Virus record (IMG/VR): IMGVR_UViG_3300026382_000001
Origin: a virus
Taxonomy: Duplodnaviria; Heunggongvirae; Uroviricota; Caudoviricetes
DNA: 64,000 nt
Strand: one strand, 5' to 3'
Shown here: positions 1-63,290 of the stretch, piece by piece
Position numbering within the stretch: position 1 is the stretch's first letter
Layout of the letters: each line of letters begins with the position of its first letter
Notes under the pieces: model-generated
What the model saw: the letters and a program-made list of their open reading frames with translations, nothing else
The model's database searches: none
What the model was told of the DNA's origin: nothing
Position numbers and translations under genes: made by a program

Positions 1-869
1 AATTCCTCTATATTATTAAAATAATATTGTGGTATTCTTATAAGTTTTATATTGTTCTTTCTACAATATTCATTTTTTATAAAATCTCTTTTTTGAATAA
101 TTTTAAAAGTTTTTTCTCCGCCAAAATATTTTATTGGTTTAAAATGTTGTTCTCCATCGAATTCAATAATTACGTTTAAATTTGGTAAATAAAAATCAAA
201 TGGTAAAACTTTTTTAAATTTACAATCTTTAAAAATTTTTTCCTGAATATAATTTATATTATTTTCTTCTAAATAATTTCTTATTTTATTTTCACCAAAC
301 GAATTTTTGCATTTCGGACAACCATTTCCATTTCTATGATTCATCGGCATTTGAAAGAATTTCCCATGTTCCGGACAGATAATTTCTACTTTAGTCGTAG
401 TATTTTCATATTGTACTTTTGAATAATCGTATTTATTCCCATGAACTTTTCTAAAATCTTTTATAACTTTATCTAAGTTTTTTCTAGATTTATCATTAGA
501 ACATTTTTGACAACCATACGATAAATGTCCATTTGGTTGTTGAAAAAAACTTCCATGTATCGTACAAATTATTTCGATCGGTGTTTTGGAATCTTTATAA
601 ATTACTTTCGAGTAATCGTATTTATTCCCATGAACATTTTTAAAATCTTCTATAACTTTATCTAAGTTTTTAAATTTATTAATTTTGGCACATTCTTGAC
701 ATCCATTTCCATACATATGATCTTTAGCCGTTTGTAAAAATTCGCCATGTATTGGACATATTATAATTAATTTATTAAAAATTCCAGTATATTTAGATTT
801 TGAATAATTATATTTATCTCCATGTTTATTTATAGAACGTTTTATAAATATTTTAGTATTTAAAGCCAT
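1..869 (-). CDS. Free-standing homing endonuclease (CPxHG/DUF723-type repeats plus Vsr/PD-(D/E)xK-like nuclease domain), 3' end runs off the window
   Basis: Not in the ORF track; read manually from ATG 869: MALNTKIF...HGDKYNYSK...ICPIHGEFLQ...GCQEC, three such repeats, then PFDFYLPNLNVIIEFDGEQHFKP; no stop before base 1. Confidence 0.85.
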   Translation of the reverse strand, partial: MALNTKIFIKRSINKHGDKYNYSKSKYTGIFNKLIIICPIHGEFLQTAKDHMYGNGCQECAKINKFKNLDKVIEDFKNVHGNKYDYSKVIYKDSKTPIEIICTIHGSFFQQPNGHLSYGCQKCSNDKSRKNLDKVIKDFRKVHGNKYDYSKVQYENTTTKVEIICPEHGKFFQMPMNHRNGNGCPKCKNSFGENKIRNYLEENNINYIQEKIFKDCKFKKVLPFDFYLPNLNVIIEFDGEQHFKPIKYFGGEKTFKIIQKRDFIKNEYCRKNNIKLIRIPQYYFNNIEE

Positions 870-878
870 ACCAGTATC

Positions 879-2093
879 CTATTTAGTAGCGTTATATAAC
901 CCTAATTGACTGTCAGTCTTTACACCCCAATTTTGTATATTTAAATTAGCAGGATTAACGAATTTCGTTTTATTAGTAGCACTAAAATTTTCAGAAGCTT
1001 CTTTAGCTGCTTCTTTAGAAAATAATGCCATTGCCGCTAGGATATCACCATCAGAGTTTTTCAATAATGGTAATCCGTCCAAATAAAAGTTATGAGCATT
1101 ATCATTTTCCATAACTAAATCAACCATTTTTAAATTATCTTGATTTACCTGAACTTTTTCAAATACTATATCAGTACACGGAATTAATTCAATTTCCCCA
1201 GAGTTTATACCAACTGGATCTAAATTATTTTCCATACTTCTAATATCATTTATATCATTATAAAATTTTAAGTACCTGGTTTTAATTTGACCATTTATTA
1301 TAAAATATTTTAAATTTCTAAATTTAAATTGTAAATCTTTTAAAATATCTAACTCATTTTCTTTTATTAATAATTTATATAAGTATGAACTGAACTTATA
1401 TCTTACTATAAAATTTTCATCTTTTTTACGAATACTATAACTAGCTTCCAAAAGATTAAAAATTAAACCAACGCTATATAAATTGATATTTTCTGGTATA
1501 ATTCCAGAATTTTTAAATAATTCTGTTAACCCTAATAAAAATTTATAATTTGAATTTACTAAAATACCTTTGTTAAAACTAACTTTATTATTTTTAAAAG
1601 TTATAAAATTACTTATGAATATTTTTTCAGTCTCGGTAAAATTTTTAGAAAATTGAAATGATTCATCAGAATAAAGTAAATGTATAATAATTTCTTTAGC
1701 AAAAGAATATGTTAATTTAATTTGAAATTCTTTATTATTATTTTTATCTTTAATAATTAAAATTTCATTATTTCTTTTTTGAAACGAGTACTTCCAAAAT
1801 AAAAAATAATTATCTGGATCACGTTGTATTTCTGTAACCGTTGGGGCCTGTAATTCTAAGGTTTCTTTATTAAGAGTGATTATAGATTCTTTTTCAGAAA
1901 TTCTAAAATCGGTTTTTTTATTAAAGAGACCTAAGTTAATTCTATTCTTATGAATTCCAAAATCATTCTTACTTAGGATTCGGTATTGTATTGGTACTTC
2001 GTGGATACTAGTACCAATAATTTCTTGAGTTATATTTTTAGTTTCATGTACTTTATTAATTGTTTCTGTACTTATGACTTTTTTAAAAGACAT
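879..2093 (-). CDS. rpoC: Intein C-terminal fragment (~346 aa) fused to a 58-aa RNA polymerase beta' active-site segment
   Basis: Intein block F/G-like VDLVMENDNAHNFYLDGLPLLKN followed by SDGDILAAMALFSKEAAKEA...NPAN...DSQLGLYNATK, colinear with bacterial beta' FDGDQMAVHVPL..EAQ.EA...SPANG...DVVLGLYYMT; own SD (AAGGA); no intein block A. Confidence 0.8.
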   Translation of the reverse strand: MSFKKVISTETINKVHETKNITQEIIGTSIHEVPIQYRILSKNDFGIHKNRINLGLFNKKTDFRISEKESIITLNKETLELQAPTVTEIQRDPDNYFLFWKYSFQKRNNEILIIKDKNNNKEFQIKLTYSFAKEIIIHLLYSDESFQFSKNFTETEKIFISNFITFKNNKVSFNKGILVNSNYKFLLGLTELFKNSGIIPENINLYSVGLIFNLLEASYSIRKKDENFIVRYKFSSYLYKLLIKENELDILKDLQFKFRNLKYFIINGQIKTRYLKFYNDINDIRSMENNLDPVGINSGEIELIPCTDIVFEKVQVNQDNLKMVDLVMENDNAHNFYLDGLPLLKNSDGDILAAMALFSKEAAKEASENFSATNKTKFVNPANLNIQNWGVKTDSQLGLYNATK

Positions 2094-2151
2094 TTTTGTT
2101 TCCTTTATTTCGTTGTAAAATCTTCTTGTTTCTTATTCATTAATATATCTA

Positions 2152-3045
2152 TTAAGCTGTATATCTACTAGCAGCTACTTGATTATTATTTCCATGTAGT
2201 ATATGTTGACCCTGTCCACCAATAAGTCCAGAAGCTTTCCATAATGATTGATCATTATTTCCAAATACTTTTAAATCATTTCTACGTTTATTAATACTTT
2301 GATTTACTTCTTGAGCGTTTTGTGATTTATAATCAGCTAACCCCACATTTTGTCCATTATTGAAATTATCTACTTCTCTTTGAGTATATAAATTTGCATC
2401 TACCTGTGCTTGTTGAACAGTCGGAGAATTTAATTTTTCCGTCATTGGATTAAATTTTTTATCTTTATTAGCATTTAATAAATTTTTTCTTTGATCATTT
2501 GGCATACTTTCAAAAGATTTTACTCTTTCATTTGTAATTCTGGTATTTGGATCAATTCCTTCTGGTATTTTCTTACCTTGTATTTCGGCATACTTTTTAG
2601 CTGGAATATCAATTGAATTTGAGTATTGTTGTGTTTTCAGAAGTTTTCTTTTTGTATCCTCAATATTTCTATATTTTTCAATATTTTCGCTATGGTCATC
2701 TATTTTAGATTGGATACCTTTCAATACCTTTTCTTTTCTTTTAGAATTTTCGATATTATAAGTTTCGTAATTTTTATTATCTTTACTATATACTGGATCA
2801 TAAGAACTATTTTTTCTAATATTATATTGAGTTTGAATTTTTTTCATATTTTGTTCTGAACTTTTTCTTAATTTCTTTGTACTTAATAAAGATTTAAAAC
2901 CACTTGATAAAGTAGCAGCTAATTTAGAGCGATTTTCATTTTTCACTGGTTTAAGTTTACCTTTAGTACCAACCGTCTTTTTAAACCAAGCTCCCGGCCG
3001 TTGAATTTCTTCAATTAATGAACTTTTATTTATATTTAATATCAT
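2152..3045 (-). CDS. Basic hypothetical protein, possible internal virion protein
   Basis: 297-aa K/N/Q-rich ORF with SD; N-terminal MILNINKSSLIEE motif shared with neighbours. Confidence 0.6.
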   Translation of the reverse strand: MILNINKSSLIEEIQRPGAWFKKTVGTKGKLKPVKNENRSKLAATLSSGFKSLLSTKKLRKSSEQNMKKIQTQYNIRKNSSYDPVYSKDNKNYETYNIENSKRKEKVLKGIQSKIDDHSENIEKYRNIEDTKRKLLKTQQYSNSIDIPAKKYAEIQGKKIPEGIDPNTRITNERVKSFESMPNDQRKNLLNANKDKKFNPMTEKLNSPTVQQAQVDANLYTQREVDNFNNGQNVGLADYKSQNAQEVNQSINKRRNDLKVFGNNDQSLWKASGLIGGQGQHILHGNNNQVAASRYTA

Positions 3046-6476: not shown

Positions 6477-6797
6477 TTATACCAATATATCTAGTTTTTT
6501 GTATTTTGGTTTTTCTTTTTTAGTTTTTTCTTTTATAGTTTTTTCTTTTATAATTTCTCTAGCCGAGTTAGAGATACCGGAAATAGTCTGTTTATCGAAC
6601 TTAATTATTTTATCTTTTTTAGGTTTAACTTCTTTAGGAGTTCCAATATTATCATTGGTTGATAAACCTTTCATTAATTTTTTTAAATTATTTGGATTAT
6701 CCCTAACTTTTGAAATAACTACTGCTTTAGTAAGAGCTTTTTCTAATCTTCTAGAAGCTTCCTCTAAAATTATTTTTTTATCTATTTTATAAATCAT
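6477..6797 (-). CDS. Lysine-rich hypothetical protein, possible internal virion protein
   Basis: N-terminal MIYKIDKKIILEE motif. Confidence 0.55.
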   Translation of the reverse strand: MIYKIDKKIILEEASRRLEKALTKAVVISKVRDNPNNLKKLMKGLSTNDNIGTPKEVKPKKDKIIKFDKQTISGISNSAREIIKEKTIKEKTKKEKPKYKKLDILV

Positions 6798-7491: not shown

Positions 7492-7731
7492 TTATTGGGC
7501 CTGTTTTAGTCTTGGATCGTTTAATGTTTTATATATCGAACCACCTAAAAAAGAACCAGTTATAATACCAGGAACTGCTGTAAATGGCATATAATTACCA
7601 TCATTTAATGCCATCGCTGTACCAACAGTAGCAGCTCCACCAAGTAATGCTCCACCCATATTGGAGGCCATTAAACCTTCTTTATTACCAAGTTCTTCTA
7701 AAACGACTTGTTTATTTATATCTATTTTCAT
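7492..7731 (-). CDS. Small glycine-zipper membrane/virion protein
   Basis: Start moved to ATG 7731 (SD AAGGA); MKIDINKQVVLEE then GGALLGGAATVG. Confidence 0.6.
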   Translation of the reverse strand: MKIDINKQVVLEELGNKEGLMASNMGGALLGGAATVGTAMALNDGNYMPFTAVPGIITGSFLGGSIYKTLNDPRLKQAQ

Positions 7732-7946: not shown

Positions 7947-8360
7947 TTAATTTCCTAGAATTGTACTAAGTTTTTCCTGAAGTACTTGTGGAGTAAAGGG
8001 TTTAACTATATAATTATTAACTCCGGCTTTAAGAGCTTGAATAACTGAAGATTTACCACCTTCCGTAGTAATCATTATAATTGGGATATTGCTGTACTGA
8101 TCTGCTTTACGAATTAACTTTACTAATTCTAAACCATTTCTATTTGGCATATTCCAATCTGTCATTATAATATCATAAGGTACTTCTTCTCCAGATGTTA
8201 AATCTAAATGAGGGTTTTGTAATAAATCCCATGCTTCTATACCATCTAAAGCTGTATCAATATTTTCTTTTGGTATACCAACTCTTATTAAAGAATTTGT
8301 AATAATTCTAAGCATCGTTTTAGAATCATCAACTACTAAAATTTTTAAATCTTTATTCAT
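7947..8360 (-). CDS. cheY: CheY-like single-domain response regulator
   Basis: ILVVDDS...TDWNMP..NGLELVK...PIIMITTEGGK..VI.ALKAGVNNYIVKPFTPQVL.EKL, closely resembling epsilonproteobacterial CheY; phospho-acceptor Asp, Thr and Lys retained. Confidence 0.9.
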   Translation of the reverse strand: MNKDLKILVVDDSKTMLRIITNSLIRVGIPKENIDTALDGIEAWDLLQNPHLDLTSGEEVPYDIIMTDWNMPNRNGLELVKLIRKADQYSNIPIIMITTEGGKSSVIQALKAGVNNYIVKPFTPQVLQEKLSTILGN

Positions 8361-28868: not shown

Positions 28869-30410
28869 ATGATTACATTAAATTTTAAAGAGTACGAGAG
28901 AGTGGATGAGTTACCCGAAGTAACCAATCCGGCAATATACACAAGTAATAAACACAATATCTTTAGCAAAGATTCATTATATTCCGAACAGATATTTGGA
29001 CCATTGAAAAATTATAAATGCCAATGCGAAAAATTATTTGGAAGAATTAATGCTGGGGAAGTTTGTGATCTTTGTGGAGTTGAATGTGGATTAAGCGATA
29101 AACGTAATTCCCAATTTGCTAAAATATTATTACCCGAAGGTATATATATTATAAACCCAGATTTTAAAAATGCTTTGCAAGAGGTATTTGGTTTTAACGC
29201 TATAAAAAATTTATTAAATAAATTTCAATATAACGCTAATAAAGAAAATCCATATATTTATAGTCTCAGTAAAGAAAAATTATTGAGAACCTCAAAAATA
29301 TCAGAAAAGGAAATTGGTAATTGTTTAGTTGATTTTCCAGTATTTGATATTAATTCATTAAGATTATTATTTAATTTTCTTAAAGATGAATTAAAATCTG
29401 AGTATTACTCGATAAATGAAGAAACCGGAGAAGTAATTGAACATCCAGTTACCGAAGAAGAAAAATTAGAGGAACGTTATAAATTTAGACATTTAATAAC
29501 TGATAAAATTAATTATAAATATATCAAACATATTTTTATTAATTATATTTTAGTAACTCCTCCTGGTTCAAGACAGGTTATTAAAATTTCAAACGTAAAA
29601 ATTATACCACATCCTATTTCAAAAGCTTATATAGAAATACTTAAAAATATTTCTAGAGGTACTAGTATTATGGATAATCTTTATAACGCTAATTCAGATT
29701 TCTTTGGAAATACGGTATATAAATACCAGCAATCAGTTGACGCTATTTATGATGAAATTCTTCAATTTAACTTTCAAAAAACTAAGAATTATGTTAGGGA
29801 ATCATTGACTGGTAAAACAATTGAATTCTCTCAGAGAGCTGTAATTGTTCCTAATCCAGTTCTTAAACCTTATCAAATTGGTCTTCCGGAAGAAAGCGTT
29901 AAGAAATTATTCTTACCTGAGTTACTTAGATATTTATTTCTTAAGTATGAAGAAAACGAAATTGAAATTATAGAAAAAGAGGGGGAAGTTAAATTATTTA
30001 GTATAGTTGAATACATTCAATATGTATATGATAGTTTTGATAAAAACTTTGAAATAGCTATACCAGAAGATGATTTAAGTGATTTTCTTAAAAATTATAT
30101 TTCTGATTTTAAAATGATTGTTGAAAGACAACCAAACTTATATAAGTGGAGTATGTCTGGATATATGTTAGCAAGAGCCTATGGGGATTCTAAAAACGAA
30201 ATTATAGAAATACCGGAATTAGATGGATTATCGGATGATGAAAGATTATTGTATTTTGAAGCACTGCAAGAAGCTCCAGAATATGTTCGAAAAGGTATTT
30301 TAGAGAATAGACCAATGATGAAAATATTTCAAAATAATATGAAATTAGCAGTTACAAAAATTTATAGGGATAAGATAAAGGATATTTATGGAGAAACAAC
30401 TAATTCTTAA
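28869..30410 (+). CDS. rpoC: RNA polymerase beta' N-terminal subunit (RNAP set 2, probably non-virion)
   Basis: LYSEQIFGP..NYKCQC...CDLCGV, PPGSR, RESLTGK...SQRAVIVPNP, ERQPNL. Confidence 0.92.
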   Translation: MITLNFKEYERVDELPEVTNPAIYTSNKHNIFSKDSLYSEQIFGPLKNYKCQCEKLFGRINAGEVCDLCGVECGLSDKRNSQFAKILLPEGIYIINPDFKNALQEVFGFNAIKNLLNKFQYNANKENPYIYSLSKEKLLRTSKISEKEIGNCLVDFPVFDINSLRLLFNFLKDELKSEYYSINEETGEVIEHPVTEEEKLEERYKFRHLITDKINYKYIKHIFINYILVTPPGSRQVIKISNVKIIPHPISKAYIEILKNISRGTSIMDNLYNANSDFFGNTVYKYQQSVDAIYDEILQFNFQKTKNYVRESLTGKTIEFSQRAVIVPNPVLKPYQIGLPEESVKKLFLPELLRYLFLKYEENEIEIIEKEGEVKLFSIVEYIQYVYDSFDKNFEIAIPEDDLSDFLKNYISDFKMIVERQPNLYKWSMSGYMLARAYGDSKNEIIEIPELDGLSDDERLLYFEALQEAPEYVRKGILENRPMMKIFQNNMKLAVTKIYRDKIKDIYGETTNS

Positions 30411-32021: not shown

Positions 32022-33479
32022 GTGAACTACACCTTTGAAAAATATTTTGATAAACGTGGAATATTAAATTCCAGTTTATTAAAAAATATAACAATTGAGG
32101 AAAAAGAAACGGTTGAAAATTATTTTACCGAATTAAAATTAAATGAAATTCAAGATATAAAAACTGATATCCGTTCAAAAGTTTCATTTTATTTAAATCA
32201 ATATTCTAAAGATGATTTACAATGTAAAGGAGACAATTGTAATAAAATGGTAAATTTAGCTAATTCTCGTCCTGGAAGTTTCTGTAGTTTAAATTGCAAA
32301 AAGGGAAGTTCTTATTTAGCTAATATTGGTAAAGAAAAATTCTCAGATGCAAGTAGATATAAACAAACCGAGACTAAGTTAAAAAAACTCTATGGAGAAA
32401 ATGCCAAGTATCTATTAAATAAGGAATTATTTATAAAAGAATTTTTAATAGAAAAGGATGGGACTAATGAGTGCGATTATACAAAAATAGAAAATATTCT
32501 TGGTATAAAAAAAGGAACTGCTCAAAAATATATAAGAAGGTTTGGGTTGGATGTAAAGACAACCCTTGGTAATCCTGGAACAACCGAACAAGTAATACAG
32601 GATATTTTAAATAATAGTATAAAAGCAACTATTTTAAAAAATAGTCGCAAAATACTTTCTAATGGAACTGAATTAGATTTTTACTTACCAGATTATAATT
32701 TTGCTATAGAAACTAATGGAGTATATTGGCATAGTTATGGAGGAGAAGATAATAAACAACATCAGTTATCAAGACATTCTATTAAGGTAGAGGAATCTTA
32801 TAAAAAAAATATTCATTTATTTCAAATAAATGAAAATGAATTATCAGATGAAAATTTAAAAAGTATATGGGAATCTAAAATATTATTAAAATTAGGTTTA
32901 TTTTCAAGAAAAATATTTGCTCGAAAATGTAAAATAAAAGAAATTTCCTCTAAAATAGCCAAACAATTTTTAGAGGAAAATCATTTACAAGGGTATGCAT
33001 ATTCTAATATTAAATTAGGATTATATTTTGAAAACGAATTAGTTTCCATTATGACGTTTGGAAAACCTCGATTTAATAAGAAAATTGATTGGGAATTAAT
33101 TCGGTCAGCTTCTTTAAAAAATACCTTAATTGTTGGTGGAGCTAGTAAACTATTTAAATATTTTATTAGACACTATAATCCTAGAAATATATTAACATAT
33201 GGTAATTGTAGATGGGTAAATAAAAATAATATTTATGATATCCTTAATTTTTCTTTTATTGAAAAAACTAAACCAAGTTATTATTATTTTAAACCATCCG
33301 ATTGGAAATTACATATGATACATAGGAGTCAGTTTCAAAAACATAAACTAAAAAACTTGGAAGAATTTAAAGAAAATTATTCGGATGATTTGACGGAAGA
33401 AGAAATTGTTTTAAATAGCGGCTATAGAAAAATCTGGGATGCAGGACATCTTAAATATATTTGGACAAAGGAAAATTAA
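32022..33479 (+). CDS. Putative homing endonuclease (Hef-like type) between the two beta' genes
   Basis: ELDFYLP...AIETNGVYWHS; IFARKC...FLEENHLQG...WELIR...GGASKL...KIWDAG. Confidence 0.75.
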   Translation: MNYTFEKYFDKRGILNSSLLKNITIEEKETVENYFTELKLNEIQDIKTDIRSKVSFYLNQYSKDDLQCKGDNCNKMVNLANSRPGSFCSLNCKKGSSYLANIGKEKFSDASRYKQTETKLKKLYGENAKYLLNKELFIKEFLIEKDGTNECDYTKIENILGIKKGTAQKYIRRFGLDVKTTLGNPGTTEQVIQDILNNSIKATILKNSRKILSNGTELDFYLPDYNFAIETNGVYWHSYGGEDNKQHQLSRHSIKVEESYKKNIHLFQINENELSDENLKSIWESKILLKLGLFSRKIFARKCKIKEISSKIAKQFLEENHLQGYAYSNIKLGLYFENELVSIMTFGKPRFNKKIDWELIRSASLKNTLIVGGASKLFKYFIRHYNPRNILTYGNCRWVNKNNIYDILNFSFIEKTKPSYYYFKPSDWKLHMIHRSQFQKHKLKNLEEFKENYSDDLTEEEIVLNSGYRKIWDAGHLKYIWTKEN

Positions 33480-35527
33480 TGGAAATACGAAAAAATAGAG
33501 TAATGGAGTTATCTAACTTAACATCAGTGCTTCACAACCATGATTATGATGGTGATAATGTTATTGCAGCGGCTTTACATTCCGAAGAAGCAAAGCACGA
33601 TTTTGCACATATGTTTGTAAATAACAATATTGAATTTGAACAAAGAGATTCGTTATTATTTGATTTCGAACATGAAGCTATATATGCTAGTTATATGTAT
33701 ACAAAAGTGGCATATCAAAATATAGGATATAATTTTGATACTGATTTTGGAGAAAATGCTTTAGCTTTGGGAGAAATAGAAGTAATTGTAAAAGACTTCG
33801 CTGAACTTAGAGAAAAATATATAAATTTCGATAGTATTAAAGAAAATAATTTAGTAATATCAATTGATAATTTAGATATAACTCTTACTTTATCTGATTG
33901 GTTAATTAATAGATGTTTACATCCTGCCGATTGGGACGAAACCTCAGATGACTTTATCATTTACCATAGTTTTGAAATTTTAAATAAAAAAAATCTTACT
34001 AAATTACTGTGGAGATTTTATAAAGATTTGAAAGCGAATGGTAGATCAGACGAATTATGGAATCTTGGACATGAATTAGATAAATTTTTAATGGAGATTG
34101 GGACAACTATAGATTATTGTAACCCTAGTTTTAATTTAAATGACTTTGCTGTAAATTCTGAAAAAATTACAGAATATAAAAAGAATCTTATTCAGAACGA
34201 ACCGTATTTAGCTTTTCATCAAAATATGGTACTATTCGAAGATTATGTTGGACCAGAAGTTAAAAAGAATCCAGATAATATTCTTCATCGTGTTTCAGAT
34301 TCTGGAGCAAGATTGAAATCAGTTCAATTATTAAAAGCAGCGAGTAATACGGGAATTCCTACCAATATCTATGGTAAAGCTATTCCAAGAAATATCGAGC
34401 ATTCCTTGCTTGATGGTTTAACTCAAAAAGAATATTATGAAACTGGAGATAGTGCAAGATTAGCATTAATGCAGAGACAAGATAGTATTCCTAGAGGTGG
34501 CGAACTTCAAAGAAAATTTTTCTTCAGTACTGGTATTTTACATTTTGAATATGATATTGAAGATTGTCAAGCTGAAGTTCCAATAGATGAACGTAAAACA
34601 ATAGATATCGAAATTAAAGATAAGGATCATCTTAAATCATTAAATCATCGTTGGTTTATAAATGAAGAAACAAAAAAAGATTTTTATATCGATATAGAAA
34701 CAGAGTGTAAAGATTGGAGAGATTATTTTAGTGAAATGATTGGACAAAGTTGGAGAATGTATTCACCGCGAAAATGTCAAGTACCGACATTCGGTATTTG
34801 TAAAAAATGTTTTGGTAAGAAAACTCCTACTTCTAAACATGTTGGAGCAAGTCTTGGTAGTTATATAGCAGAGGGTATTATTCAATCTGTTCTTAGAGCG
34901 CACCACTTTGGTGGAGCTTTTATTACGGAATTAAATTATAAAGTTTTAGATATTTTAAAAGATTCTAAAATTATAGCTAAACCAGATGAAACCATAATTG
35001 AAACAGCTAAGGAAAATACAGAAGTACTTATAGAATATTTATTTACTAAATATAACGAAAGTGATTTAGAAATAACTACAACTGATTATAAAGATACTGA
35101 AAAAGGAGAATATACTTCGTTAGTATTAAAAGTAATTAACTTACCATATAATGATGACTCTGTAAAAATTCTTACCAGTATTGTATCACTTATAGATAAA
35201 AATAGAAAAGATGACAAATTTATAGTTCCTAGTGAAATCTATAATTCTTTAGTAGAAGTAATTACACAAAATGATTTACTTAGTGTTTATTTTGAAATGA
35301 TTCTTAGTCTTATTTTTTATGACGAAGATGGTAATATATGTAAGTATTCTGATAAACCAGCAACTACACAAATTGCTTTAAAAAATATTATTGAAAAACT
35401 TGATCCAAAATTATCAATATTTTATAATTTTAGTAATAGAGCCATTGCTAATGTTTATAAAAATGAAAATTCTAGTACTGATGGAACCGGACATATGTAC
35501 AATGAACTACTAGAGATGTATTATTAG
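33479..35527 (+). CDS. rpoC: RNA polymerase beta' catalytic/C-terminal subunit (RNAP set 2)
   Basis: NHDYDGD active-site motif, SGAR, SLLDGL...Y...AR, C...GICKKCFG, Q.VLRAHHFGG; start set to 33479. Confidence 0.93.
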   Translation: MEIRKNRVMELSNLTSVLHNHDYDGDNVIAAALHSEEAKHDFAHMFVNNNIEFEQRDSLLFDFEHEAIYASYMYTKVAYQNIGYNFDTDFGENALALGEIEVIVKDFAELREKYINFDSIKENNLVISIDNLDITLTLSDWLINRCLHPADWDETSDDFIIYHSFEILNKKNLTKLLWRFYKDLKANGRSDELWNLGHELDKFLMEIGTTIDYCNPSFNLNDFAVNSEKITEYKKNLIQNEPYLAFHQNMVLFEDYVGPEVKKNPDNILHRVSDSGARLKSVQLLKAASNTGIPTNIYGKAIPRNIEHSLLDGLTQKEYYETGDSARLALMQRQDSIPRGGELQRKFFFSTGILHFEYDIEDCQAEVPIDERKTIDIEIKDKDHLKSLNHRWFINEETKKDFYIDIETECKDWRDYFSEMIGQSWRMYSPRKCQVPTFGICKKCFGKKTPTSKHVGASLGSYIAEGIIQSVLRAHHFGGAFITELNYKVLDILKDSKIIAKPDETIIETAKENTEVLIEYLFTKYNESDLEITTTDYKDTEKGEYTSLVLKVINLPYNDDSVKILTSIVSLIDKNRKDDKFIVPSEIYNSLVEVITQNDLLSVYFEMILSLIFYDEDGNICKYSDKPATTQIALKNIIEKLDPKLSIFYNFSNRAIANVYKNENSSTDGTGHMYNELLEMYY

Positions 35528-60739: not shown

Positions 60740-61984
60740 ATGCAGTATATACCAGTAACAGGACTAAGTCCAGTTTCCGAAGTAAAAAATATTATTATTA
60801 ATCACTTTAACGCCGCTTTAATTAGTATTGCGGAACCAACCACTTCCCGTGGTTGGAGTATTCATCAAGTTTATCGACAGATGGATAAACTTTTTAAAAA
60901 TTTTAATGAAATCACTGATCCAAATTTGAAAACATTATTGTTAGATAGTGGTGGTTTCCAAATTCTTATGGGGTATATTTCTAAAAATAGACTTCGGGAA
61001 TATATAGATACCTATCACTTTCTTCTAAAGAAATTTCATAACAATTTTGAAAATGAAAATATTGAAACTTTGATATTTTCATTAGACGTTCTTAATAAAA
61101 ATTTATCAAAAGATGAAATTTTTAAATATAATAAACATAGTATTGAATCTAGTTTAAAAATATTTGAAAAATTTCCAAAACTTAGAGATAAACAATTATT
61201 TATTGTTCAGAGTAGATTTCCGGAAACATTAGAAATTTGGAAAAAGATTATGGAAGATAATAAAGTATTTGATATTTATTCAAGATATTCTTTTGGAGGT
61301 TTAGTAGGTCTTAAAAAAGAGACAAATGCCAAATTTAATCATTTTACTCCAATGTTATTCTGGTTAATGGGTTATGCGAAATATCTTGGAAAAGATGGTG
61401 TAATTAAACATGTACATATGTTGGGACAAAGTTCTAGATTAGCTATTATTACGGCTGTAATTTTAGAAGAAATAGTAGGTTTTGAAATTACAATGGATTC
61501 GAGCGAAATCTTAAGATTTAGTCCGATACAGGCAAAGCTTCCATTAATATATAGAAATGCCTTAAATGATAATGAATTCGAAATGGCTAGAGATATAGAT
61601 CATTTAGCAATTATGTTAGAAAACAACGTTTCATTAAAAAAAGTTGATTATAATATAGAAGAAGCATTAGAAACTTTGAAAAAAACTGGAAAAGTTTCTA
61701 ATCCGGACTTTGTAGAAATAGTTTGTCAAGGGGTTGAAAGTACATTAGCATTTGCTAATAAATTCCGGGATGATAATATGGATAAAATTCAAGATCGAAG
61801 TATTTTAGATTGGACAATACAAGATTTACAATTATACAATCCTATTTTTAAACAAGGTCGGTTAGCTCAAGAATTAGTAAATAATTTTAGATTAGCTAAA
61901 AAAGGATTAAAGCATTATGAAGATGGAACTTTTGAAGAGTACCATCAAGAAGTACATGCTTTAATTGAAGATTATTATAAATAG
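60740..61984 (+). CDS. dpdA: TGT-fold DNA 7-deazaguanine transglycosylase (DpdA-like)
   Basis: LLDSGGFQ, SLDV, FGGLVG, HVHMLG, TMDSS; co-occurs with QueC and QueE. Confidence 0.78.
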   Translation: MQYIPVTGLSPVSEVKNIIINHFNAALISIAEPTTSRGWSIHQVYRQMDKLFKNFNEITDPNLKTLLLDSGGFQILMGYISKNRLREYIDTYHFLLKKFHNNFENENIETLIFSLDVLNKNLSKDEIFKYNKHSIESSLKIFEKFPKLRDKQLFIVQSRFPETLEIWKKIMEDNKVFDIYSRYSFGGLVGLKKETNAKFNHFTPMLFWLMGYAKYLGKDGVIKHVHMLGQSSRLAIITAVILEEIVGFEITMDSSEILRFSPIQAKLPLIYRNALNDNEFEMARDIDHLAIMLENNVSLKKVDYNIEEALETLKKTGKVSNPDFVEIVCQGVESTLAFANKFRDDNMDKIQDRSILDWTIQDLQLYNPIFKQGRLAQELVNNFRLAKKGLKHYEDGTFEEYHQEVHALIEDYYK

Positions 61985-62016
61985 TTAATTAGATATTATT
62001 TCCATAAGGAAATAAT

Positions 62017-63087
62017 ATGCGTAAATTATCCCAAGAAGAAGTTATAACTAGATGTAAAAAAATTCATCCAAATTATGATTATTCTAAATCGGTATATATT
62101 AACCGTCGTACTAAAATGGAAATTATTTGTCCAGTACATGGTAGTTTTTGGCAGCGGCCAAATATGCATTTAAATGGTTCCGGGTGTCCCAGATGTTCCG
62201 GACGGATTAAAACCACTTTTGAAATTATAGATAACTTTAATAAAATTCATAAAAATAAATACGATTATTCAAAAATGAATTATAAAGGTTCCATGAAAGA
62301 AATTGAAATTATTTGCAGGATTGATAAACATGGTAGTTTTTTCCAAACTCCAAATAGTCATTTAAAAAGTGGTTGCCCTAGATGCGGCGGAACTAAAAAA
62401 TTATCAAAAACCGAATGGATTGAAAAAGCTAAATTAAAACATGGTTTAAAATATAATTATACTAAGGTAGAATATATAAATAGTATGTCAAAAGTTGAAA
62501 TTATCTGTCCAAAGCATGGGAGTTTTTTCCAAATTGCTATTAACCATATTAATCGTCAGGCTTCTGGTTGTCCGGAGTGCGTTAGAAAATCAATTTACGA
62601 ACATATAGATGATTTCAATAAGGCGCATTTTAATAAATTTAAATACATCGAAGAAACTTTTGTAAATGTTGATACTAAAATGGAAATTATTTGTCCGGTA
62701 CATGGTAGTTTTTGGCAATTACCAAGTAATCATAAATCTGGAGCAGGTTGCCCAATATGTTCTCAATCAAAAGGGGAAAGAAAAATATTAAATTTTTTAA
62801 AAGAAAATAATATAGTTTTCTTTTCCGAATATCGTTTTAAAGATTGTAAATATAAAAATACACTTCCATTTGATTTTTATTTACCAGATTATAATCTGTT
62901 GATAGAGTATGATGGAGAACAGCATTTTAAACCAATAAAGTGTTTTGGTGGCGAGAAAGAATTTAAATTAAGACGATTAAAAGATAATATAAAAACAAAG
63001 TATGCCATTAAAAATAATATATTGTTAGTGCGTTTAAGTTATCTAGATTTAGATATAATTAATGATATATTAAAAGGATTATTATAG
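62017..63087 (+). CDS. Homing endonuclease, CPxHG-repeat type (4 repeats)
   Basis: CPVHGSFWQ repeats; PFDFYLP...IEYDGEQHF. Confidence 0.88.
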   Translation: MRKLSQEEVITRCKKIHPNYDYSKSVYINRRTKMEIICPVHGSFWQRPNMHLNGSGCPRCSGRIKTTFEIIDNFNKIHKNKYDYSKMNYKGSMKEIEIICRIDKHGSFFQTPNSHLKSGCPRCGGTKKLSKTEWIEKAKLKHGLKYNYTKVEYINSMSKVEIICPKHGSFFQIAINHINRQASGCPECVRKSIYEHIDDFNKAHFNKFKYIEETFVNVDTKMEIICPVHGSFWQLPSNHKSGAGCPICSQSKGERKILNFLKENNIVFFSEYRFKDCKYKNTLPFDFYLPDYNLLIEYDGEQHFKPIKCFGGEKEFKLRRLKDNIKTKYAIKNNILLVRLSYLDLDIINDILKGLL

Positions 63088-63132
63088 ATAGCTAAAGATA
63101 GTTAACTATTCATAGTACGACTATGAATAGTT
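63087..63132. repeat. 46-bp AACTAT/ATAGTT palindromic element, second copy
   Basis: Matches 35745..35790. Confidence 0.85.
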
Positions 63133-63290
63133 TTCTCAATAAATATAAAAAGGAAGACCATACCTTTTAAATTAATTGGCCGAAGCCAAAATACTAAAAG
63201 TCTATATACAGATAATATAGATATATTTTGGTATAGTTAAAAATTCTTGGCCGAAGCCAGAATTAAACGTTTAATTTAAAGGAAATACAA

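Follow-up and report, generated by a model that had tools for sequence, protein, structure and literature searches.

A 64,000-nucleotide stretch of viral DNA (hereafter the window), which corresponds to positions 24-64023 (-) of contig G000:C1, carries a gene that very probably encodes the C-terminal half of a naturally and atypically split, cysteine-free, class-1-like intein interrupting the Mg2+-binding DxDGD loop of an RNA polymerase (RNAP) beta' subunit. The contig is an IMG/VR viral record of 167,008 bp with 26% G+C and a CheckV completeness of 59%, and its source is an uncultured jumbo phage with two multisubunit RNA polymerases, of which the one concerned is designated set 1. The C-terminal intein fragment (IntC) and the N-terminal fragment (IntN) are encoded by two half-genes, each with its own start and stop, that hold complementary parts of the intein fused to consecutive parts of the interrupted protein (the exteins). 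We infer splicing and its chemistry from computed evidence, namely the anatomy of the genes, their conservation, the predicted fold, colinearity with contiguous alleles, and the predicted pairing of the two halves.

The IntC gene is identified in the list of open reading frames (ORFs) and in the sequence as a 404-aa open frame at window 879-2093 (-), beginning with ATG at 2093-2091 and ending with TAG at 881-879. Its product has the layout ...MVDLVMENDNAHNFYLDGLPLLKN(346)/S(347)DGDILAAMALFSK...LGLYNATK(404), where the slash, here and below, marks a splice junction. The 58-aa tail after Asn346 opens with Ser347-Asp-Gly-Asp and closes with LGLYNATK (882-1055), as it had been described in a first-pass annotation of this DNA made from the letters and open frames. 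That annotation regarded the gene as free-standing, with a Shine-Dalgarno sequence and an upstream motif of its own, and both are present: AAGGA at 2105-2101, 7 nt ahead of the ATG, and ATAGATAT at 2145-2152 (-).

The DxDGD motif requires three Asp residues, of which the IntC gene supplies the last two, and the first-pass annotation had placed the missing one in a separate, non-adjacent gene outside the window, encoding the beta' N-part and a very short IntN. A search of the genome for a beta' fragment ending in (N/G)xD and followed by a Cys-, Ser- or Ala-initiated IntN found this partner at G000:C1:68576-70015 (= L003:8577-10016), outside the window and 5,430 bp downstream of the IntC gene on the same strand. 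Its location was thus foreseen correctly, and the length of the IntN was not. The 479-aa product consists of beta' residues 1-399, ending in ...PIGGD, and of a Ser400-initiated IntN of 80 aa; beta' similarity stops at ...KRDPGW...LIVPSLIYAPIGGD(399), and the last 80 residues start with SFSSNYII. The N-extein matches PF04997 and solved beta' chains (profile E 3.4e-14), among them the AR9 nvRNAP beta'N chain 7s00_d. A 281,328-bp contig on record also carries the partner protein. Asp399 joined to Ser347 reads GGD-SDGD, which is a DxDGD motif (DSDGD). From genome positions and strand, the gene order is permuted, in that the IntC gene precedes the IntN gene and a primase gene lies between them. When the contig is translated in six frames, no further [DN]xDGD occurs in an RNAP frame except the HNHDYDGD of the second polymerase set (two unrelated matches lie in non-RNAP frames), so that, as anticipated, the contig holds no intact set-1 DxDGD elsewhere.

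Single-chain relatives occupy the same site. P0167 (604 aa), P0169 (632 aa), and P0170 (915 aa) are contiguous beta' chains that read ...LGP[LI]GGD/C...N/SDGD...YNATK, and a fragment, P0171, reads N/CDGD. All are uncharacterised metagenomic proteins that surfaced at the weak end of an exhaustive hidden Markov model (HMM) list; a previous search in the split family for homologues fused into longer chains had returned none, which was weak evidence in any case. P0170 lies on a 4.8-kb Logan contig and P0169 on a 102-kb contig. P0170 matches PF00623 (Rpb1_2) up to the GGD and carries an intact two-motif LAGLIDADG domain (LAGLIDADG_3, PF14528, E 6.8e-12). The beta'N chain aligns with P0170 by BLASTP (E 7e-23) without a break across APIGGDS and GPLGGDC, IntC residues 309-403 do so (E 6e-8) across LLKNSDGD and ILQCNSDGD, and MAFFT aligns the two halves, once concatenated, colinearly with the contiguous alleles. 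Measured on the contiguous intein, IntN gives way to IntC after about 60 residues, upstream of a conserved His (His31; WSIH in the alleles) and also of the RISEKES (ITISENKS) segment that occupies the position of block B. A split at this point, before block B, is atypical. The contiguous alleles share with the split family the insertion between the first Asp and the x of DxDGD, an [EDN]xxS block B, the His31-equivalent His, the terminal Asn, and a beta' chain ending in ...YNATK. They differ from it in being single polypeptides (cis-splicing) with Cys1 rather than Ser1, and in lacking a 20-aa insert (LSKNDFG...RIN); P0170 retains its two-motif LAGLIDADG domain and the remaining alleles are mini-inteins. 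The contiguous Cys1 alleles are likely the mobile ancestors of the split form.

The first-pass annotation had called the intein an orphan, which does not hold. A word-indexed search found 74 IntC homologues at 30-94% identity, all of them stand-alone proteins of about 380-460 aa, and an exhaustive HMM search of 1.84 billion representatives likewise returned 74 clusters for the family. In 74/74 aligned IntC sequences, H31, S70, D325 (in the V-D-L of block F), N335, and N346-S347-D348-G349-D350 are invariant, so that every one presents a terminal Asn followed by Ser at +1. The penultimate residue, Lys345 here, is K in 57/74, H in 7/74, S in 4/74, and other residues in the remainder. Among the partner homologues (n = 37), P395-x-G-G-D399 is invariant and is followed directly by an invariant S400, a position held by Cys in the contiguous alleles; the tails after GGD/S measure about 35-80 residues. 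On a 290-kb NCBI contig (L004) with an IntC protein at 38% identity, the IntC gene again comes first, then one ORF, the primase, beta'N-IntN, and the next beta' piece, and the beta'N there ends in GGD/SMNTNF with a 53-aa IntN. In a third lineage (L006) the primase gene comes immediately after the IntC gene. None of 50,697 deposited phage genomes matched the IntC gene in a tblastn search, and the closest cultured relatives of the partner (Listeria phage LPJP1 and phiKZ-like phages) are about 26% identical to it. The split arrangement is conserved and not accidental.

An AlphaFold2 (AF2) model of IntC was obtained with a predicted local distance difference test (pLDDT) score of 83.7 and a predicted template modeling (pTM) score of 0.80. 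In a Foldseek search of the PDB with this model, the 16 best matches are all endonuclease-bearing inteins, including PhoVMA (E 3e-6), TliVMA, PI-PfuI, and PI-SceI. Pairwise comparison by VIA-align gave Z 11.9 for PI-SceI (root-mean-square deviation, rmsd, 4.4 A; 267 residues aligned), Z 11.8 for the AceL NrdHF split intein (2.8 A; 128), Z 11.0 for the Aes123 PolB1 split intein (2.9 A; 127), and Z 9.5 for Npu DnaE (2.5 A; 113). The solved inteins align to the model only from their own residue 16-25 onward (PI-SceI from 16-21), and the IntC ORF must therefore lack the first strand(s), block A, and residue 1. By this model, residues 1-346 are clearly predicted to be an intein fragment with a Hint fold, in agreement with the earlier description of an intein without block A. 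The MSF at the start of the ORF was considered as a vestigial block A and ruled out, because the N-terminus varies among relatives.

The LAGLIDADG-like region that had been described as decayed appears to have kept its fold. Motif 2 of P0170, LIDSDAS, aligns with LLEASYS in IntC, replacing the catalytic Asp with Ser, and at the other acidic position relatives have S, T, K, Y, F, A, or N in place of E191. The endonuclease domain is probably catalytically dead, since its catalytic Asp has become Ser and the second acidic position is freely variable. The endonuclease I-DmoI matches the IntC model at only Z 2.8, compared with the 267 residues that align for PI-SceI.

The two intein fragments are also predicted to pair. 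Complex prediction was run on the IntC ORF and partner residues 372-479 with family alignments and three controls, and gave ipSAE scores of 0.88, 0.88, and 0.85, as opposed to 0.00 in all three controls; the mark applied to this score is attained by 58/80 solved complexes and by 2/110 mismatched pairs. The runs share at least 60% of contacts, with a partner pLDDT of at least 65. The confident interface includes both splice junctions (partner 397-409; IntC 344-347), the surroundings of Asp325 (322-326), and IntC 68-70 and 30-31, and in the model strands of IntN pair with IntC at 426-430 with 112-117 and at 441-444 with 176-180, the latter at the edge of the LAGLIDADG-like domain. The prediction supports binding of IntN and IntC to each other, with a score that may partly reflect likeness to known structures, because split-intein complexes have already been solved.

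Several results weigh against an intein in this gene. On the 404-aa protein Pfam detects no Hint, intein, or LAGLIDADG domain, so that the Hint fold proposed for residues 1-346 is seen by structure comparison and not by domain HMM, and Pfam finds nothing in the 81-aa IntN region. Profiles of the whole IntC family, of its N-terminal 125 aa, and of the contiguous intein of P0170 match no intein in the PDB. The canonical TxxH of block B is absent from IntC, and the penultimate residue, as had been pointed out, is Lys in place of His; loss of the block B Thr or His or of the penultimate His weakens splicing in many studied inteins. Taken alone, the profile of the 58-aa C-extein matches no RNAP structure in the PDB, and the beta' identity of this segment is taken from the DGD motif, from homology to single-chain relatives that carry PF00623, and from its fit between the flanking beta' pieces. 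Finally, a further set-1 beta' copy in the remaining genome is conceivable, because by CheckV the contig amounts to only about 59% of the genome. With regard to the domain searches, PHROGs likewise shows no intein, Hint, or LAGLIDADG on the 404-aa protein (sole match phrog_1377, E 0.04), and PF14890 is found in two relatives below threshold (24.7-26.8 bits, compared with a cut-off of 35.8), with its positions 25-137 corresponding to residues 21-276 of P0056.

The segment that stands at the block B position in the alignment to the contiguous alleles is E67-K-E-S70, without His or Thr and with Ser70 invariant, and RISEKES aligns with ISENKS, ISETNS, and SDENS in those alleles. The earlier reading of RISEKESIITL as a degenerate block B agrees with this alignment, and from its position and its modeled strand-turn-strand pattern the segment would be the block B equivalent, in an [E/D/N]xxS variant. 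His31 lies upstream of it, is invariant in 74 sequences, and follows a Lys in the family consensus. Since the only PDB profile matches are spurious (ITPase and TrkB), the block B-like segment and the putative upstream His motif cannot be placed on a solved intein at the level of single residues. PolB16, an intein with Ser1 and Ser+1, was shown to dispense with its block B His (Pasch et al. 2023, PMC10189870). In the same study, an upstream His that had escaped notice until then, that of the 'NX' motif, with Lys or Arg before it, was critical for PolB16 splicing and was conserved only in Ser1 inteins. By analogy, His31 is a candidate for the NX His of Ser1 inteins. A broader scheme can be imagined, in which a Ser1 intein splices without a block B His or Thr by way of His31, the dead LAGLIDADG domain forms part of a docking surface for the long IntN, and trans-splicing in the RNAP loop acts as a checkpoint that needs both halves; we regard it as speculative and rather doubtful.

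N-O acyl shift, transesterification, Asn cyclization, and O-N shift make up the standard intein pathway, and the split intein would be expected to follow it. The two precursors would dock, with IntN supplying the absent first strand(s) together with Ser1. Ser400 would then attack the carbonyl of Asp399 in an N-O acyl shift at Asp399/Ser400, the acyl group would move to Ser347 by transesterification, Asn346 would cyclize, and a final O-N shift would release a beta' N-subunit of 457 aa whose loop reads GGD-SDGD (DSDGD). The predicted junction peptide is ...APIGGD-SDGDILAAMALFSK. The next beta' piece would stay separate, as the 387-aa product of 70015-71178.

The same evidence can be read in other ways. 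The halves might dock non-covalently only, so that splicing has been lost and a permanent dimerization module gathers the three Asp residues without a peptide bond. The His- and Thr-less ExxS block B and the penultimate Lys would be explained by docking without splicing, and the complex model sets both junctions side by side, which speaks for it too. Pure docking, however, has no need of a Ser1 that is invariant in 37 sequences or of an Asn346 and Ser+1 that are invariant in 74 with variable neighbors, and the contiguous alleles at the same site must excise their intein or else leave 200-500 aa inside the catalytic loop. The DxDGD loop is buried at the RNAP active center, and a 426-aa appendage would be hard to fit there. 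Loss of the block B His, for its part, is tolerated by the Ser1 PolB16 intein (PMC10189870). Permanent docking of this kind is therefore considered unlikely. It is very unlikely that the fragment undergoes C-terminal cleavage only, or no reaction at all, as a decaying remnant of a rearranged beta' gene whose set-1 polymerase is dead or is completed by a copy elsewhere. The incompleteness of the contig (about 59% complete), the permuted gene order, and the decayed LAGLIDADG domain could all be accommodated by decay. However, at least 74 clusters, reaching down to 30% identity, and a syntenic genome at 38% preserve the arrangement, both frames, and every junction residue, purifying selection is seen across the family, and all the other set-1 beta' pieces flank the IntN gene. 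That the gene encodes a conventional RNAP subunit carrying an accessory domain at its N-terminus and a degenerate loop (Asp to Asn) free of intein chemistry is scarcely credible: N-S-D-G-D can be read as a D-x-D-G-D variant and Pfam sees no intein, but the fold is that of endonuclease-bearing inteins, the beta' part of the partner stops exactly at the first Asp and gives way to a tail that starts with Ser and is predicted to supply the rest of the Hint fold, and the single-chain relatives carry GGD and N/SDGD separated by a bona fide LAGLIDADG intein. Joining at the RNA level, for example by a group I intron, was also considered and found needless, because each of the two genes carries a start and a stop of its own, and the residues at the junctions are of the protein-splicing type.

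Taken as a split intein, the IntC/IntN family belongs among the naturally and atypically split cysteine-less inteins, and it is distinguished by a long IntN, a LAGLIDADG-bearing IntC, permuted and distant genes, and an ExxS block B. It is most readily compared with the PolB16 OarG split intein from a sheep-gut metagenome (PMC10189870), which is also a natural atypical split with an IntN that lacks block B, with Ser1 and Ser+1 and with cysteine-independent class-1 chemistry, and whose NX His is preceded by Lys or Arg, as the family consensus at the invariant His31 is K-H. PolB16 differs in interrupting a PolB DNA polymerase rather than an RNAP beta' subunit, in its IntN of 15 aa (80 aa here and about 35-80 in relatives), in its IntC, which is a 168-aa mini-intein and not a 346-aa fragment with a LAGLIDADG-like domain, and in retaining the N3 His where the family has an invariant Ser. 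Profile searches detected no sequence similarity between the IntC family and PolB16. The AceL-TerL and GOS-TerL inteins (reviewed in PMC11766414) are likewise phage-derived and naturally split near the N-terminus, with IntN fragments of 25 and 37 aa and, in GOS-TerL, a Ser1; unlike the present family they reside in the terminase large subunit, have Cys at +1, and are mini-inteins without an endonuclease domain.

The 'fractured genes' (Dassa et al. 2009, PMC2677866), as cited in PMC6892783, and the split PolB intein of jumbo phage MIJ3 resemble the present case in that an intein is the place where the host gene is interrupted, and the break is accompanied by a free-standing endonuclease gene. 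In those systems the two halves are neighbors in the normal order and flank the endonuclease gene, whereas here they are permuted, 5.4 kb apart, and separated by a primase gene, the endonuclease gene is optional, and IntC retains a decayed LAGLIDADG domain of its own. The known RNAP inteins (Mja rPol A' and A'', Nph rPol A'', and eukaryotic RPB2, RPA2, and RPC2; PMC1635734) also sit at conserved sites of multisubunit large subunits, and unlike this one are all contiguous and either cellular or from eukaryotic viruses. In the literature found, no known RNAP intein is placed in the DxDGD loop (the exact site of that in Mja rPol A' was left unchecked), and the literature search found no paper describing either a DxDGD-loop intein or a phage RNAP with a split intein; where reviews of jumbo phages and of the RNAPs they encode refer to inteins, these lie in other genes.

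If the catalytic Asp triad arises only by trans-splicing, each gene alone would specify a dead enzyme, and annotation, recombinant expression, and structural work on this jumbo-phage RNAP clade must allow for the splice. For intein biology, the family would add a natural split intein that is widespread (at least 74 clusters) and unites features seldom found together: a split before block B, no catalytic Cys, no block B His, an endonuclease-like domain within IntC, and halves that are permuted and kilobases apart. The contiguous alleles at the same site, one of them with an intact endonuclease, would form a series from mobile cis-intein to fixed split intein. Cysteine-less split inteins are in demand for protein engineering (PMC10189870).

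Table 1. Positions of the IntC gene, its parts, and neighboring genes in the window and in the genome (G000:C1).
Feature	Window	Strand (window)	Genome	Strand (genome)	Description
IntC precursor gene	879..2093	(-)	61931-63145	(+)	346-aa C-terminal intein fragment and 58-aa beta' C-extein; stop TAG 879-881
IntC, residues 1-346	1056..2093	(-)			Predicted Hint fold minus first strand(s); inserted degenerate LAGLIDADG-like domain at about residues 125-290
His31 codon	2001..2003	(-)			Invariant His; candidate 'motif NX' His of Ser1 inteins
Block B-like segment E67-K-E-S70 inside RISEKESIITL	1884..1895	(-)			ExxS where the canonical motif is TxxH
Blocks F and G	1056..1121	(-)			Asp325 (codon 1119-1121) to terminal Lys345-Asn346 (Asn codon 1056-1058); from conservation
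C-extein	882..1055	(-)			Ser347 (+1 nucleophile, codon 1053-1055); Asp348-Gly-Asp350, the last two Asp of DxDGD
Translation and transcription signals of the IntC gene	2101..2152	(-)			AAGGA 2101-2105; ATAGATAT 2145-2152; promoter role putative
Free-standing HNH/treble-clef homing endonuclease	3..869, running off the window	(-)	63155-64042	(+)	phrog_559 'HNH endonuclease', E 2.3e-73
Primase-helicase			64075-67071	(+)	DUF5906 and CHC2 zinc finger
298-aa ORF			67653-68549	(+)	
479-aa beta' N-part and IntN			68576-70015	(+)	PF04997
387-aa next beta' piece			70015-71178	(+)	Rpb1_4, Rpb1_5

The upstream motif of the IntC gene, ATAGATAT, occurs 24 times in the window compared with 10.7 expected, a count reached in 0/100 shuffles. 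The sites (that at 2145-2152 (-) and 23 others) are frequently just upstream of gene starts, and from this sequence pattern the motif is a candidate phage promoter element. In the genome it stands ahead of the IntC gene and the primase gene and not ahead of the beta'N-IntN gene, so that, of the two half-genes, which lie on the same strand, only that for IntC has it directly upstream. There is no evidence either way on the earlier suggestion that trans-splicing serves as an assembly or timing control of the RNAP.

The beta' subunit of the second polymerase set is divided without an intein. Its N-part (window 28869-30407 (+), 513 aa) covers PF00623 positions 1-118 and its C-part (window 33479-35524 (+)), which has the intact HNHDYDGD, covers positions 119-163; the two pieces are about 3 kb apart, and the break falls about 20 residues before the catalytic loop.

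The homing-endonuclease gene immediately downstream of the IntC gene encodes 295 aa in the genome and has a Pfam DUF4379 treble clef. It is missing at the IntC locus in L006 and replaced by a different ORF in L004, and since nothing separates the IntC gene from the primase gene in the former, its presence next to IntC is optional. The 167-kb contig contains 11 phrog_559 'HNH' paralogues, built of repeated treble-clef modules and a C-terminal nuclease, at 42-55% mutual identity. Besides that at window 3-869 (-), they lie at about G000:C1 949-2016, 13847-14506, 47678-48337, 50124-50804, 71265-72308, 72888-73937, 74013-75071, 77193-78116, 126620-127471, and 135106-135810, and four of them are in tandem immediately downstream of the set-1 beta' genes.

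An N-terminal tag, M-x-[IL]-x-[IL]-[ND]-K-x-x-[IL]-[IL]-E-E, recurs in several proteins that have no other relation to one another, exemplified by MILNINKSSLIEE, MIYKIDKKIILEE, MKIDINKQVVLEE, and MKLELNKKLLLED and found at window 3007-3045 (-), 6759-6797 (-), and 7693-7731 (-) and at genome 67653 (+). Its carriers include the gene directly upstream of each intein-half gene, and the tag may be a capsid-targeting or prohead-protease signal. The contig begins, outside the window, within a tandem repeat of about 33 bp (CAGCTTGTGCTGGAGCAGCTGGCATACTTGGAG; G000:C1:1-100). A 137-aa ORF at window 7947-8360 (-), starting MNKDLKILVVDDSKTMLRII..., resembles by eye a CheY-type response-regulator receiver, which is unusual for a phage.

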